Source: an uncultured Gammaproteobacteria bacterium (GTDB lineage: Bacteria > Patescibacteriota > Microgenomatia > UBA1406 > HO2-37-13b). From it: a stretch of 64,000 bases of DNA. Where the stretch lies: positions 3,765-67,764 of the forward strand of contig CAYQYZ010000002.1 in assembly GCA_964422025.1 (NCBI GenBank). The letters are read 5' to 3'. The notes under the pieces are model-generated. The model saw only the letters and a program-made list of their open reading frames with translations, was not told where the DNA came from and did not search any database. The translations under genes were made by a program, and so were the position numbers. Below, piece after piece: positions 30,889 to 35,040 of the stretch (the stretch's first letter is position 1; the number at the start of each line of letters is the position of its first letter).

Positions 30889-31149
30889 ATGAATATTTTA
30901 AACAACCTTGGCACAGCAGAAATAGTCATAATCGCTTTTGTGTTTATGGTGCTCTTTGGCCAAAAGAAACTAATGGAATGGGCAAAAGGACTTGGTGAAT
31001 CAGGCAGAGAAATTAAGAAAGTCAAAAAAGAATTTGAGAACACACTGAATTCAGATTCAGATACGGAAACTGAAACTGAAACTGAGCCTGAAACAACAAA
31101 AAAAGCATCTTCTGGTAATAAAAAGAAGGGGGTGAAGAAAAAGAAATAA
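30889..31149 (+). CDS. tatA: TatA/E-family protein, paralog 1, with long acidic/Lys-rich tail
   Basis: MNILNNLGTAEIVIIAFVFMVLFGQKKLMEWAKGLGESGREIKKVKKEF, then a DTETETETEPE repeat and a KKKGVKKKK tail. Confidence 0.8.
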   Translation: MNILNNLGTAEIVIIAFVFMVLFGQKKLMEWAKGLGESGREIKKVKKEFENTLNSDSDTETETETEPETTKKASSGNKKKGVKKKK

Positions 31150-31150
31150 T

Positions 31151-31285
31151 ATGGGAACAACTGAAATTTTGATTATTGCATTCCTCGTTCTAATTTTTCT
31201 TGGTGGCAAGCGCGTACCTGAATTTATAAAATCACTTGGGCAATCTGTAAAGGAATTTAAAGAAAGCTCAAAAGAAAAGAAATAA
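31151..31285 (+). CDS. tatA: TatA/E-family protein, paralog 2 (44 aa; below ORF-track cutoff)
   Basis: My translation: MGTTEILIIAFLVLIFLGGKRVPEFIKSLGQSVKEFKESSKEKK. It starts 1 nt after the previous stop. Confidence 0.75.
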   Translation: MGTTEILIIAFLVLIFLGGKRVPEFIKSLGQSVKEFKESSKEKK

Positions 31286-31293
31286 GTAATTGT

Positions 31294-32046
31294 ATGAATG
31301 CTTCTACAAAAATACAAGAGGATACTCCTTCTTTTCTACAAGCGCACGCTCGATATATACCATTTTTAATGGAAGTTAGACGTCGTGTGGTACTTGTTGT
31401 TTCTGTATTTCTTATCGGTTCGGCAATAGGTTTTATTTACTATGAACCTATTATTAAGATAATATTAACGATTTTTGATTTTAAGGGTATAAACATAGTA
31501 TTTACTTCCCCCTTTCAGTTTATTAACTTAGCTTTCAATACTGCATTGTTATTAGGCTCGATATTGGTTATCCCATTATTAGTATTCCAAATACTACTCT
31601 TTATACGTCCGGCGTTAACTAGACAAGAATATAAACTCATTGTTTCTTTATTGCCGCTCAGTATTCTTTTGTTTATTTTTGGTATGGTTTTTGGAATTAC
31701 CATTATGAGATACATGATAGTTCTCTTTTATGAAAAATCTATTCAGCTGCAAATTGGAAACTTCTTAGATGTTTCTCAATTTTTATCGCAAGTTCTTATA
31801 ACCGGATTATTGATGGGTATTGGCTTTCAATTTCCCGTATTTCTTACGATACTTTTGAAAATAAAAATCATTTCATACGAAACGCTCGTAAAAAAACGCG
31901 TATTTGCGTATGCAATATCGTTACTTTTCGCTGCATTACTGCCTCCTTCAGATTTAATATCACTTTTTTTTCTCACGCTCCCTTTAATTTTGCTTTTCGA
32001 ACTGACATTATTGCTCAATAGATTTATTTTAAGAAATCATGTATGA
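31294..32046 (+). CDS. tatC: Twin-arginine translocase subunit TatC
   Basis: 250 aa, 6 TM. PFLMEVRRRVVLVV.., FTSPFQFINLAF.., LLFIRPALTRQEYK fits TatC signatures. Confidence 0.9.
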   Translation: MNASTKIQEDTPSFLQAHARYIPFLMEVRRRVVLVVSVFLIGSAIGFIYYEPIIKIILTIFDFKGINIVFTSPFQFINLAFNTALLLGSILVIPLLVFQILLFIRPALTRQEYKLIVSLLPLSILLFIFGMVFGITIMRYMIVLFYEKSIQLQIGNFLDVSQFLSQVLITGLLMGIGFQFPVFLTILLKIKIISYETLVKKRVFAYAISLLFAALLPPSDLISLFFLTLPLILLFELTLLLNRFILRNHV

Positions 32047-32232: not shown

Positions 32233-32236
32233 ACAC

Positions 32237-32650
32237 ATGTATATAGTAACGCCGCTTATTGCAGCAATACTACCATTTATACTATGGCCACTTGAGCACA
32301 TTCTTCCATATCCTGCATTTATAGAAGAGATTGCCAAAGTGGTCATAGTTTTTTATTCAAAAAAACATTCACCAGAATATAATCCCCTGATAACTGGACT
32401 AAGTATTGGAGTACTGTTCGCTCTTTCCGAAGCCGTATTGTACTTATTCAACTTTGCACTCGTCGGAAATTTGACAGAGCTACTGGTAAGGCTTGCATTA
32501 ACCATACCGCTTCATACCACTTCTGCGCTCATAATTGCATATTCGTTCAAGAAAGGTCGAAAAGGGTTATTATTGGGCACTACACTAGCAATTGCGCTAC
32601 ACCAAATATATAACATGTATATTACTCAATTTGTCGCTTTATTTTCTTGA
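32237..32650 (+). CDS. Small polytopic membrane protein with intramembrane-protease-like EExxK ... HxxxN motifs (PrsW/CPBP-like)
   Basis: FIEEIAKVVIV, LSEAVLYLF, PLHTTSALI, ALHQIYN across 4 TM segments. The start MYIVTPL at 32237 is preferred, because the track start 32186 lies inside tatA3. The function call is weak. Confidence 0.5.
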   Translation: MYIVTPLIAAILPFILWPLEHILPYPAFIEEIAKVVIVFYSKKHSPEYNPLITGLSIGVLFALSEAVLYLFNFALVGNLTELLVRLALTIPLHTTSALIIAYSFKKGRKGLLLGTTLAIALHQIYNMYITQFVALFS

Positions 32651-34903
32651 AGGACACAACTGAGATTCATTTGTTTTAGCTCCGAGCACTTGCATTGCTT
32701 GATCGCGTGAGTTAGTAGAAATTACCTTGGATGTTGCAAAAACAGATAATATCGAAATTGCAGCTCCATAAAACAGAATAAACGCTACTAGATGCGTATT
32801 TAGTGCAATTTTGTTTGTTTGGGGTGCCACATTGACGACTTTTGCTGTTTTCTTTTTTGGTTTTGGCACCTTTTTTACCTCTACCGGCGTACTTGACAAC
32901 TTGCGCATATATATCATTAAGAATACAAATCCGGCACTCATAATAATGATGAGTCCCCATACGGCAAGCGTTTGAGTTGCGCCAACAAATCCCAACATGG
33001 TGCCTGTTGAACTTACCTGAGACGATAAATCTTTCAACTTATCAATTTTTTGCTTTACTGATTTAAGCTCAATGACCGATTCGCTATAGGTAAATAGCTT
33101 TTCTTCAGGAGTTTCTGCTCGCTCTTGATTGAGTTTAATTTTATCAAGAGCAACTTCAATGTCGCTTTGTAGTGTAACGCCTTGCGCAAAATAGGCGGTT
33201 TTTTCAAGTGGCTTAAGAAGTGAGTCGGTTTGTTTCTTTAACGACTGTAGTTCTTCAGTAGAAACAAACCAAATATCACTTGTGCGCACTTGAACTGTTT
33301 TTGATTCTCCCGGATCAAGTTCAAATTCCCCGATTACATAATATTGACCTTTTTGCTCATCAAGCTTGAGCGTTAGCTCTTTATCCATATCTAATATGGA
33401 TTGTTTCTTTACTTCCTTTGGCAAATAATATTTGACTTCAGTTGTTTGCTTAATAAGTGTTGAAGGATTTGTCACGAGTGTTTTAAAAACAATACTTCCC
33501 AATTCTAACCAGGTACTTGCAAAGCTGGACTCAGGATTCTGTACTAAATGGCGTTTATTAGCACTAATTAATCCCTGCAATGCAAAGAATTGATTTCTTA
33601 ATTGTTTATCAGTCGATTTAGCGGTTTTAGATGAAAGTGTTCCGATTTGAGGTAAACGATTTAATGCTAGTACATCGCGACTCAATTCCGAAACAAGATT
33701 ATTCTTCTTTGTAGCCGACATTTTTTTCCAATCAGTTTGTACCGAAGCTAATGTCTGGGAATATGTTTCCAAGTCAGCATGATATTGAGTAATGTCTGCG
33801 ATTTCACCAAATAGCGTGTTTTCAACCTCATCGTCGGCTATATCGCCTATTGCATTACTTAGATAATTTGCAGATACAATGGCCTGGCGTGGAAAAGCTG
33901 TTGTATTTTTGCTTCCTGAAATAAGTGACTGCTGTGTATTTTTAATATGATATTGAAGATCACCAATATAATCAGTACTCAGCTTGTTTGATGAAAAGTT
34001 CCATTTGGATATAAACCATTTATTCATACCAAAAAGTGTATTCTTACCCATTTTATCTGTTGATGTTCCTATTAAATCCACTAATGAGTTGACTGCTTCA
34101 AGGCGTTTGCCATTTGATAACGTAGGCCACTTCTGCTGTAATTTTGCGATTGTTTTTTGTATTTGAATGGTTGTAAAGTATATGTTCTTGGCATTTTCTT
34201 TCGTTGTATCAAGTTTGGCTTGTAGGTCAGGCTCATCTTCTATAAAACTTTTTACGGTAGGTTTATTTACCTGTTTCTCAAGCAATAATCGCGATGCCTT
34301 TGTAGTGTTTTTAATTTCAATAATATTTGCCGTATTAGTATCGTAATCAGATTTCGTAGCAATACTACCGCTTGAAAGATTGGCGCCTGTTAGTGTTCTT
34401 GATGTGCTAGCCCATATATCGGTAATAAGTGAGTTAAATCCGGTTAGCGTTCTTCCTGAATAGTCCCATACAGCGGCTGCAATGTCGTTTGCGCCCGGGG
34501 CGCTCGTTTGACTGCTTTGCGCAACCACAGTAAATGATTTGTCGATACACAAATACTCCGATCCGGCTGTACAACAAATTTGCGATCGGTATAATCCTTC
34601 AGTACTAGGCGCGGTGAAATTATGCCCATACCATCCATCCGATGTTCCGGTCAATGCTTGAGATGACAAATATGCAGTTCCATTAGGATAATGAGAGTTA
34701 AGTGTACAAGTAGCTGAAGTTATCGGTTGATAACTATCGTCAAATAAGAATTCCCCGACGATACATGAAGAAGATGCCGGGCATGACAGTGAGTTTGTTG
34801 CCGCCCCGACCGATGTCGGCCCAATCAGGGCCGCAACAAACATACTTGATATAGATAGCAGTCTGAAACTATTTTTTTTCCACTCTATATTTCCCATACT
34901 CAT
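32639..34903 (-). CDS. 754-aa exported protein: Cys-rich N-domain, VWDYSGRTLT tail-fibre-type motif, long coiled coil, C-terminal 2-TM anchor
   Basis: Signal-like LLSISSMFVAALIGPTSVGAA. GANDIAAAVWDYSGRTLTGFNSLITDIWASTSRTLTG. C-terminal TMs LAVWGLIIIMSAGFVFLMIY and LVAFILFYGAAISILSVF. The start overlaps the tatA4 stop (ATGA). Confidence 0.85.
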   Translation of the reverse strand: MSMGNIEWKKNSFRLLSISSMFVAALIGPTSVGAATNSLSCPASSSCIVGEFLFDDSYQPITSATCTLNSHYPNGTAYLSSQALTGTSDGWYGHNFTAPSTEGLYRSQICCTAGSEYLCIDKSFTVVAQSSQTSAPGANDIAAAVWDYSGRTLTGFNSLITDIWASTSRTLTGANLSSGSIATKSDYDTNTANIIEIKNTTKASRLLLEKQVNKPTVKSFIEDEPDLQAKLDTTKENAKNIYFTTIQIQKTIAKLQQKWPTLSNGKRLEAVNSLVDLIGTSTDKMGKNTLFGMNKWFISKWNFSSNKLSTDYIGDLQYHIKNTQQSLISGSKNTTAFPRQAIVSANYLSNAIGDIADDEVENTLFGEIADITQYHADLETYSQTLASVQTDWKKMSATKKNNLVSELSRDVLALNRLPQIGTLSSKTAKSTDKQLRNQFFALQGLISANKRHLVQNPESSFASTWLELGSIVFKTLVTNPSTLIKQTTEVKYYLPKEVKKQSILDMDKELTLKLDEQKGQYYVIGEFELDPGESKTVQVRTSDIWFVSTEELQSLKKQTDSLLKPLEKTAYFAQGVTLQSDIEVALDKIKLNQERAETPEEKLFTYSESVIELKSVKQKIDKLKDLSSQVSSTGTMLGFVGATQTLAVWGLIIIMSAGFVFLMIYMRKLSSTPVEVKKVPKPKKKTAKVVNVAPQTNKIALNTHLVAFILFYGAAISILSVFATSKVISTNSRDQAMQVLGAKTNESQLCPSRK

Positions 34904-35040
34904 TCTTGTGCAGCTTTTCGAAGTTCACTTATTGAGCTTCCTATTCCACGTGCAAATTCTGGAAGCTTTTTCCCTCCGAAAAGAACCATTAATACAAAAG
35001 CAACTATTACTATTTCCGCCATTCCAATTCCGCTTAACAT
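34900..35040 (-). CDS. tatA: TatA/E-family protein, paralog 4 (46 aa; below ORF-track cutoff)
   Basis: My translation: MLSGIGMAEIVIVAFVLMVLFGGKKLPEFARGIGSSISELRKAAQE. Strong SD AAGGAGGTGA upstream. Confidence 0.8.
   Translation of the reverse strand: MLSGIGMAEIVIVAFVLMVLFGGKKLPEFARGIGSSISELRKAAQE

Follow-up and report, generated by a model that had tools for sequence, protein, structure and literature searches.

A TatA-coupled stalk protein in a conserved multi-TatA gene module of Microgenomatia and WWE3, a candidate new partner of the machine that exports folded proteins

The 64,000-nucleotide (nt) stretch of DNA analyzed here (contig CAYQYZ010000002.1 of assembly GCA_964422025.1, positions 3,765 to 67,764), hereafter called the window, comes from an uncultured, Roizmanbacteria-like bacterium of the Microgenomatia and carries a cluster of genes for twin-arginine translocation (Tat), the machine that exports folded proteins. 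The cluster encodes one TatC and four TatA isoforms, three of which are found in an operon with the order tatA1, tatA2, tatC, and tatA3, followed by a gene for a PrsW-type protein. The remaining copy, tatA4, opens a conserved unit of two genes and bears a Shine-Dalgarno (SD) sequence; the second cistron encodes a 754-amino-acid (aa) stalk protein, which we call big754 and whose gene in most cases lacks a separate ribosome-binding site. Because big754 is coupled to tatA4, it is a candidate for a Tat partner that has not been described before. TatA and TatC are known to be encoded by Microgenomatia (PMC9166423), and our literature searches found no description of a multi-TatA/big754 module. A 2026 preprint on the Pam pilus was considered as a possible related system and set aside as unrelated, since that pilus is Sec dependent and the preprint never mentions Tat. 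The genes of the module are as follows, with positions given within the window.

tatA1 (class U2), 30889-31149, plus strand: 86 aa from an ATG; 38.5 bits against PF02416.
tatA2 (class U1), 31151-31285, plus strand: 44 aa, minimal TatA; 41.8 bits against PF02416.
tatC, 31294-32046, plus strand: 250 aa, the single TatC of the cluster; 131.2 bits against PF00902.
tatA3 (class D1), 32089-32232, plus strand: 47 aa, minimal TatA; 60.6 bits against PF02416.
PrsW-type intramembrane protease-like gene, 32237-32650, plus strand: 137 aa; 31.8 bits against PF13367, with a cut-off of 23.5.
big754, 32639-34903, minus strand: 754 aa; predicted Sec signal peptide, immunoglobulin (Ig)-like domain, helical stalk, and two transmembrane (TM) segments, TM1 and TM2.
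tatA4 (class B), 34900-35040, minus strand: 46 aa, minimal TatA; 49.4 bits against PF02416.
SD sequence of tatA4, AAGGAGGTG, 35056-35048, minus strand: sole strong ribosome-binding site of the tatA4-big754 pair.

A first-pass annotation of this DNA had described a strong SD sequence ahead of tatA4 and an ATGA overlap between the tatA4 stop codon and the start of the 754-aa protein, and both are present in the sequence. The overlap depends on the start chosen for big754. In the NCBI record, the big gene (8081-10303 of L001, versus 32639-34903 in the window) encodes 740 aa and starts 14 codons downstream, and the 754-aa call also occurs in public data (P0001); use of the 740-aa start would remove both the positively charged n-region of the big754 signal peptide and the ATGA overlap. 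The same ATGA arrangement was found in the closest relative (L003). Both this relative and the second public gene call speak for the 754-aa start. Across the loci described below, the gap between the tatA stop codon and the ATG of the big gene had a median of approximately 5 nt, and 52 of 60 junctions either measured 30 nt or less or were overlapping. An SD-like motif preceded the tatA gene upstream of big754 (hereafter the pre-big tatA) in 43 of 46 loci and preceded the big gene in 12 of 52, with a background of 16%. With an SD sequence on the pre-big tatA, a motif frequency near background before the big gene, and a tiny gap between the two, the big gene would normally depend on ribosomes delivered by tatA. 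These results, for which the starts of the short genes and of the big gene are predicted ones, strongly argue that translational coupling from tatA to big754 is a conserved design.

The conservation of the linkage was determined in 77 loci from species-representative genomes, which were fetched through an alignment of the big754 family, span the Roizman-, Levy-, Ames-, Woese-, Davies-, Gottesman-, Shapiro-, and Beckwithbacteria as well as WWE3, and were mapped for TatA, TatC, PrsW-like, and other genes. A tatC gene was found within 6 kb of big754 in 42 of the 43 loci that had at least 5 kb of sequence on both sides, and a PrsW-like gene was within 3 kb, in either orientation, in 40 of the 43. 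The gene directly upstream of big754 on the same strand was a tatA in 60 of 74 loci and tatC in 5 of the 74. Because all of these loci had been selected through big754, the converse test was made from TatC, using 80 metagenome loci fetched through a TatC alignment: big754 was present in 27 of the 32 loci with enough downstream sequence, and the big754-tatA pair in 18 of the 20 with room for it. For most lineages, a tatA-tatA-tatC-tatA-prsW operon is convergent with the tatA-big754 pair; for genomes of the Shapiro, Beckwith, and WWE3 types, these genes all point the same way in a single array. The trpS and glyA genes that flank the module in the window are common only to its two closest relatives. 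Judged from these gene orders, the module outlasts rearrangement while its housekeeping neighbors do not, and the recurrence of the same arrangement in dozens of independent genomes goes far beyond chance. The first-pass annotation had proposed synteny of tatA4 with the 754-aa gene as a check and the lack of conserved linkage as grounds for dropping its idea; the linkage is conserved. By this comparison of sequences, the module is ancient and is conserved across Microgenomatia and WWE3.

The window itself is chromosomal, as it carries genes for leucyl- and tryptophanyl-tRNA synthetases, serine hydroxymethyltransferase, L1, L11, NusG, and ComEC, and the same genes were found in assembly GCA_049662945.1. 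No tRNA or Rfam element was detected in the window, and promoter and terminator scans of it performed no better than scans of shuffled sequences. Many of the species-representative metagenome-assembled genomes that carry the module (L004, L006, L008, L012, and others) are titled "uncultured Gammaproteobacteria," "Pseudomonadales," or "Gemmatimonadota" in third-party annotation records, and these titles are probably wrong.

The open reading frames of the first-pass annotation were all present where it had placed them, and the small ones proved to be bona fide members of the TatA family, with all four scoring above the gathering score of 21 bits of the Pfam model TatA_B_E (PF02416). The stop codon of tatA1 is separated from tatA2 by 1 nt, and tatA2 is separated from tatC by 8 nt; tatA3 has an SD sequence of its own, GAGGAGGTG. 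A GTG lies one codon upstream of the tatA1 ATG, and the protein contains the acidic TE-repeat SDSDTETETETEPETT and the lysine-rich KKKGVKKKK tail that had been noted before. On the TIGR01411 model (cut-off of 53.9), only tatA3 passed, at 62.8, whereas tatA4 (48.7), tatA2 (39.6), and tatA1 (36.9) fell short; for every one of the four, the NCBIfam TatA/E models outscored the TatB models. All four copies, like the class consensus sequences, have G-x-x-E, a hydrophobic stretch of about 15 residues, (F/L)G(G/Q)K(K/R), and an amphipathic segment, which is the TatA/E layout of an N-terminal TM helix with a polar residue, a glycine hinge, and a basic amphipathic helix. The core motif that had been proposed to be common to all four was broadly kept but not in every position: just past the hinge, LP is replaced by LM in tatA1, and the FGG of the motif is LGG in tatA2. 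A TatB identity was considered for the four copies and rejected, since the best TatB models gave 25 to 37 bits versus cut-offs of 56.5 to 75, and a GP hinge of the TatB type was found in none of them. The longer charged tail of tatA1 hints no more than weakly at a role like that of TatB. Taken by their sequences, all four look like ordinary minimal TatA proteins.

The TatC protein matched PF00902 over profile positions 2 to 208 of 208, well above the cut-off of 25.1 bits. It scored 114.2 against the NCBIfam equivalog TIGR00945, under the cut-off of 132.7, and is therefore a divergent member of the family. The equivalents of E. coli TatC residues E15, E103, F94, and D211 are kept in 54, 56, 54, and 51 of 56 homologs, respectively, and in the window protein. 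In E. coli, E15 and E103 are the glutamates that bind the twin arginines. With the twin-arginine-binding glutamates retained, the translocase looks conventional. The position that matches E. coli E170 is a glutamine in the window protein and in 47 of the 56 homologs.

The relationships of the TatA copies were analyzed by sorting 230 TatA cores by gene position, with classes U2 and U1 upstream of tatC, class D1 between tatC and prsW, and class B before big754. The nearest neighbor in another locus belonged to the same class for 35 of 40 U2, 36 of 47 U1, 36 of 42 D1, and 46 of 48 B cores. Identity between genomes within a class was 0.64 for B and 0.63 for D1, and the mean identity of paralogs within a locus was 0.52. 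The proteins of classes U1, D1, and B are minimal, with approximately 44 to 47 aa; class U2 is without the hinge-proximal proline and has a charged tail past the core with a median length of 13.5 aa. The genes are short, alike, and clustered, as would be expected had they arisen by recent, sporadic local duplications of no particular significance. That origin is nevertheless extremely improbable, because the window paralogs are merely 45 to 60% identical (approximate values), each copy pairs with genes at the same position elsewhere and not with its neighbors, and the arrangement was found again in well over 100 independent loci; nor do these loci reflect close relatives only, as the linked big gene is just 30 to 45% identical among them. 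Nearest neighbors that follow position, together with higher identity between orthologs than between paralogs, exclude recent or sporadic duplication, and by this analysis the four copies are ancient, position-specific paralogs. Copy number ranged from 1 to 8 tatA genes per locus, with a median of 4, in the 43 big754-anchored loci with at least 5 kb on each side. The high TatA copy number remarked on in the first-pass annotation is a real, selected feature of the lineage. In L005 (13781-15814) and in the metagenome locus L085, the cluster holds eight tatA genes, with a tandem run of six ahead of tatC; such clusters in some relatives indicate that the number of TatA copies can readily rise during evolution in this lineage.

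The closest homolog of big754, from a Candidatus Roizmanbacteria genome, is 71% identical. A word-indexed search returned 149 proteins at E values of 0.001 or lower, of which 120 were listed, all at 2e-126 or lower, and a full scan gave 555 representative clusters (50% identity) at 1e-30 or lower; the family is annotated as nothing beyond "SH3 domain-containing." The N-termini of its members have one or two K/R residues in the n-region, a hydrophobic core, and an AxA-like site, as in Sec-type signal peptides. The first-pass annotation had described the 754-aa protein as exported and without a twin-arginine (RR) motif, and its N-terminus does carry KK and no RR. A Tat substrate identity was rejected for big754, since an N-terminal RR occurred in only 1 of the 120 listed members. 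Four cysteines of the first domain are invariant or nearly so, with Cys66 and Cys111 invariant; conserved cysteines in the ectodomain fit folding outside the cell and Sec export.

An AlphaFold2 model of big754 (mean predicted local distance difference test [pLDDT] score of 80.7; 453 residues at 90 or higher) consisted, in its N-terminal half, of a signal helix, a beta-sandwich (residues 39-127), a disordered linker with W..RTLT repeats, and a helical bundle (191-454) and, in its C-terminal half, of a second beta-sandwich (461-541), long helices (549-669) that lead into TM1, a loop, and TM2 (703-733). Foldseek matched only single domains of the Ig, filamin, or macroglobulin type, with no whole-protein analogue in the PDB, and a PDB profile search returned coiled-coil and SH3 noise only; scans of big754 and the PrsW-like protein against defense-system and phage families gave no match, and the defense-system scan was likewise negative for p436 and p657, two proteins described below. 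TM1 (FGFVGG.Q..AVWGLIII..AGFVFL..YM[RK]) is among the most conserved segments of the protein. In most relatives, a bacterial SH3 domain comes after a basic loop, placed in the cytoplasm by the topology, and a TM2 rich in Gly, Ser, Ala, and Thr, so that the domain forms a tail on the outer side; the window protein has lost this domain. The sequence and the model together indicate that big754 is a Sec-exported stalk protein anchored by a TM hairpin, which probably binds the cell wall, and not a Tat substrate. In the linker (DIAAAVWDYSGRTLT, repeated DIW..S.RTLT; window 34420-34500), big754 shares [DE]IA.AVW[DG] with the C-terminus (EIADAVWDEV; 30710-30830) of p436, a protein encoded upstream of tatA1 and described below. 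Both families conserve this motif, which may serve for interaction.

A Tat-consensus signal was found in a single protein of the window, which occupies the far end of the island.

217-aa membrane protein, 15494-16147, plus strand: N-terminal 2-TM module, internal Tat signal, and a domain of about 95 aa.

The signal, NNRRMFLRLIGSAGVSVFILSIFTGKAEAA, lies at about nt 15776-15865 (NNRRMFLRLIGSAG...GKAEAAFFGS), and the reading frame is called as one gene in public assemblies. Members of the family are laid out as an N-terminal module of two to four TM segments, a lysine-rich loop, D.[DN]RR.FLK[LM]IGSAG, a weakly hydrophobic segment, K/R, A.AAFFGS, and the domain of about 95 aa. The RR.FLK[LM]I[GS]SAG motif was invariant in nine aligned members and present in four of five further members near tatC; the fifth, in L121, a locus without big754, had no RR by the pattern used. 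The TM domain after the motif has a Kyte-Doolittle (KD) hydropathy of 1.5 to 1.9 and is followed by K/R and A.A. An RR directly before a last TM domain of low hydrophobicity, with positive charge on its C-terminal side, is the hallmark of membrane proteins with dual Sec/Tat integration (Tooke et al., PMC5449189), and the predicted features of the 217-aa family, with RR-x-F-L-K ahead of a weakly hydrophobic segment, agree with it. Genes of this family were found near tatC in at least 12 other loci (L025, L032, L041, L044, L061, L065, L070, L074, L118, L138, L149, and L160), among them L160, which has no big754, and L044, in which the gene is immediately upstream of tatC. Genuine RR signals exist in these lineages, and on these sequence features the 217-aa family is likely the local Tat cargo and a probable new family of dual Sec/Tat membrane proteins with no obvious cofactor. 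The gene is the last of three tandem plus-strand genes (14379-14942, 14946-15497, and 15494-16147) that share the N-terminal 2-TM module ([FL]LP[IL]..YF) and differ in their C-terminal parts: the first ends in a tail resembling a coiled coil, the second in an SH3_3 domain, and the third in the domain with the RR signal. In the SH3 paralog, a KRRS precedes the third hydrophobic segment by about 10 residues.

The membrane protein that had been described as PrsW/CPBP-like and as following tatA3 is indeed a PrsW-type gene, located 4 nt downstream of tatA3. Its start is most likely the ATG at 32237, as in the NCBI record, and not the TTG of a mechanical list of open reading frames, and its 3' end overlaps the 3' end of big754. 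Across the mapped loci, the PrsW-like gene, whichever way it faces, is the immediate neighbor that follows big754. Membership in the PrsW type was evident both from the hidden Markov model score and from the catalytic motifs EExxK/R and HxxxN/D; in 60 homologs, EE..K, SE..Y..N, H..T, and H...N were kept in at least 90%. It was rejected as the equivalog of B. subtilis PrsW, with an NCBIfam score of 20.9 bits versus a cut-off of 225. A further gene is divergent from the pre-big tatA in approximately 38 loci.

orf317, 35252-36205, plus strand: divergent from tatA4; C-terminal winged helix-turn-helix (HTH) and a weak HTH_11 match.

The C-terminus of orf317 resembles the winged-HTH end of Fic-type proteins (PADLOC SoFic, 1.9e-10, residues 209-314), no Fic catalytic motif was seen by eye, and on this sequence evidence orf317 is a candidate regulator. 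A 12-nt inverted repeat, TCTTGACACAAT / ATTGTGATAAGA (35212-35241), overlaps a promoter-like TTGACA-17-TAAGAT just upstream of orf317 and may be an autoregulatory operator.

Three proteins encoded upstream of the tat operon, where the first-pass annotation had noted genes that lack signal peptides, unexpectedly proved to be further conserved neighbors of the tat genes.

p436, 29520-30830, plus strand: modeled right-handed beta-helix, PF13229; 58 nt upstream of tatA1.
p657, 26949-28922, plus strand: no signal peptide; N-terminus conserved; paralogous to the p2923 C-terminal part.
p2923, 17196-25967, plus strand: giant Thr/Ser/Ala/Gly-rich protein, no signal peptide.

Homologs of p436 are 55 to 67% identical and of nearly constant length (approximately 432 to 450 aa), and the gene was present in 46 loci anchored on big754 and in 26 of 34 anchored on TatC, in every case just ahead of the tat genes and on their strand. 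p657 and p2923 were each found in 37 loci; p2923 ends in a copy of the whole of p657 (1e-121), and the N-termini of both are very conserved, with the motif MA.I..DFTIDY.NKR.YHS in p657. None of the three has an RR motif or a signal peptide. The AlphaFold2 model of p436 (pLDDT of 80.1) is a right-handed beta-helix, for which the best predicted fold matches were the pectate lyase Pel9A, the Dettilon tailspike, rhamnogalacturonan lyases, and AlgG. The earlier description of these genes as "tail-fibre-like" holds for this generic beta-helix fold of p436 but not beyond it, with no match to phage records, PHROGs, or PDB sequences: a tblastn search of 50,697 phage records with p436 gave no hit, p436 and p657 had no PHROG or PDB sequence hit, p657 also had no Pfam hit, and p2923 had one marginal PHROG hit (phrog_1236, E value of 3.5e-4), with no stretch passing alone. 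A phage tail fiber or tailspike identity was rejected for all three, and their surroundings are chromosomal housekeeping genes; "IADAVWDE" at the p436 C-terminus, considered as a possible phage-fiber motif, had no match in the phage search and was dropped as such. Nor does the Tat cluster lie between genes of this kind, as had been stated, since the gene on its other side is big754, with a normal Sec signal peptide. A spermidine-synthase-like/class I methyltransferase gene (25985-26593, plus strand) located between p2923 and p657 is common to only three related loci and is for that reason probably outside the conserved module.

The reading that we favor is a composite one, in which the translocase would work conventionally and export RR proteins, with the 217-aa protein as a local cargo that is probably inserted by Sec and Tat together. 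The big754 protein would be made in fixed proportion to TatA4 and would work at the membrane and wall, where either the Tat machinery or the cargo that it exports would have big754 as a partner or accessory; the PrsW-type protease would probably process one of the single-pass partners, and the multiple TatA isoforms would serve as specialized or additional pore-forming subunits. We give this combination of a conventional Tat system with RR cargo, a Tat-associated big754, and processing by the protease an even chance of being correct; its descriptive parts are near certain, and the partnership of big754 with Tat by itself is a roughly balanced call. Several observations weigh against it. The physical or functional contact between big754 and Tat is one that we infer from comparative sequence data. 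All of the loci come from one deep lineage, and the conservation of gene order may for that reason be partly inherited and not selected. No tat gene of any kind is directly upstream of big754 in 9 of 74 loci, the module is missing from 5 of the 32 TatC-anchored loci (L121, L141, L144, L148, and L160), no TatA-big754 fusion was found among 247 family members, and TM1 is equally conserved in eight genomes without a pre-big tatA, a comparison that does not discriminate between readings. The idea that TM1 is a disguised TatA/TatB helix was dropped for want of homology (best E value of approximately 0.8 with filters off), and the equivalence of the TatC residues given above depends on the E. coli reference sequence used for their numbering. 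Some of these points would be expected if the cluster were an envelope island under common regulation in which Tat and big754 are not physically linked, tatA4 is an extra supply of TatA and, as a short and strongly initiated reading frame, a translational leader for the big gene, and the order of genes is kept by shared regulation and ancestry. The lack of fusions and the conservation of TM1 whether or not tatA4 is present agree with such an island, as do the nature of tatA4, an ordinary minimal TatA with a mean identity of 58% to the post-tatC class, and the two clades that kept big754 though the pre-big tatA was lost. It is opposed by the adjacency itself, which has been kept through inversions and re-orderings at deep divergence (big754 30 to 45% identical) while housekeeping neighbors have not, and by class B, a distinct orthologous group that stands before the big gene in 60 of 74 loci; a leader role alone also leaves unexplained why the leader is always a TatA. 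We consider mere co-regulation possible but less likely than the favored reading.

The remaining alternatives concern what the Tat machinery would carry. Were big754 a dual Sec/Tat client, Sec would export the ectodomain and insert TM1, and Tat with TatA4 would insert TM2 and translocate the SH3 domain. Its TM2 is less hydrophobic than TM1 (KD of 2.22 versus 2.67) and richer in Gly, Ser, Ala, and Thr (0.42 versus 0.27, with 0.41 to 0.47 for the Tat TM domain of the RR family), approximately 3.4 basic residues precede it and 1.7 come after, and precedents are available in the actinobacterial Rieske proteins (PMC5449189, PMC3471235) and in Tat-integrated tail-anchored proteins (PMC10924467). A twin arginine, invariant in the true RR family, nevertheless precedes TM2 in only 6 to 7% of members, and the window protein has no SH3 domain yet keeps tatA4 and the coupling, which makes a dual client highly unlikely. 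The first-pass annotation had raised the idea of a specialized export or membrane role for some of the TatA-like proteins; in its full form, the multi-TatA system would export or assemble p436, p657, and p2923 by a non-RR signal or by hitchhiking on an RR protein, with big754 as the anchor. The position of p436 in both sets of loci, the conserved N-termini of the three families without signal peptides, the RR-signal protein at the other end of the island, and the fold of p436, whose pectate-lyase/tailspike relatives mostly act on extracellular polysaccharide, would all suit such a role. Against it, none of the three has an RR or other recognizable targeting motif, TatC looks canonical, and the conservation of p436 fits a housekeeping or intracellular role better than that of a surface adhesin. 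The three proteins are known here from sequence and a model, in which a location outside the cell is not indicated, and known Tat cargo is far smaller than a 2,923-aa protein. With a canonical TatC and an RR-signal protein in the window, nothing shows a non-canonical export role of the TatA-like proteins, and we regard this one as quite unlikely. The wider form of the idea, in which TatA4, big754, the PrsW-type protease, and p436/p657/p2923 would together be a Tat-derived apparatus of Microgenomatia and WWE3 that exports or assembles large folded surface proteins without a twin-arginine signal, we consider unlikely on the sequences at hand; if it were true, such an apparatus, with a dedicated TatA paralog and a wall-anchored stalk, would be a non-canonical use of Tat in ultra-small episymbiotic bacteria.

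Several features of the favored composite have counterparts in known systems. As with E. coli TatA, TatE, and TatB (PMC5777986, PMC5201420), several single-span paralogs share one TatC, are ancient, and have diverged tails, and in each an N-out TM helix that contains a polar residue leads through a hinge to an amphipathic helix. Unlike the E. coli set, no copy here qualifies as a TatB, the hinge is FG or LG and not GP, there are more copies (median of 4, up to 8), three of them are minimal proteins of approximately 44 to 47 aa, and one is tied to a non-Tat gene. The TatAd-TatCd/phoD and TatAy-TatCy/efeB (ywbN) clusters of B. subtilis (PMC3827258) are likewise of the monoderm TatAC type with a client gene beside tat, here the RR family, but they consist of several TatA-TatC pairs and not of one TatC with several TatAs; since big754, the most tightly linked neighbor, has a Sec and not an RR signal, it is not the analogue of PhoD. 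The 217-aa protein resembles the actinobacterial Rieske protein Sco2149, Sco3746, the polyferredoxins, and the YkuE family (PMC5449189, PMC3471235) in its Sec-type TM segments, loop, RR, and weak last TM domain and is unlike them in its small exported domain of about 95 aa, which has no recognizable cofactor-binding motif; its features are predicted from sequence, and an AxA site after the TM domain suggests that this domain may be cleaved off. A link between an intramembrane protease and TatA is known from TatA and AarA of Providencia stuartii (PMC3712462), and here a PrsW-type gene ends the tat operon. The protease type differs, being glutamic PrsW/CPBP-type here and not rhomboid, and the TatAs of the window have no N-terminal extension to remove. 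PrsW acts on RsiW in regulated intramembrane proteolysis in Bacillus subtilis (PF13367 family). Here, too, a protease gene with its catalytic motifs kept is beside the gene for a membrane protein with a large extracytoplasmic part, big754, but the protein is only 137 aa, no sigma or anti-sigma factor is present, and big754 is unrelated to RsiW.

The Tat parts are ordinary members of their families, and the novelty lies in the conserved module that surrounds them, with its TatA-coupled stalk family, miniature PrsW-type protease, and signal-peptide-less neighbors. Descriptions of Tat usually have TatC working with one to three members of the TatA family and include no dedicated partner outside the cytoplasm. 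In a class of candidate-phyla-radiation bacteria with genomes of roughly 1 Mb, selection keeps a set of three to eight TatA genes, a PrsW-type protease, and a stalk family together, and big754 becomes a concrete candidate for a new Tat-associated component. The linkage also provides the first genomic context for a large family so far annotated as "hypothetical" or "SH3 domain-containing," and the conserved envelope island, which covers approximately 22 kb in the window, may matter for the surface biology of bacteria that are not yet culturable.

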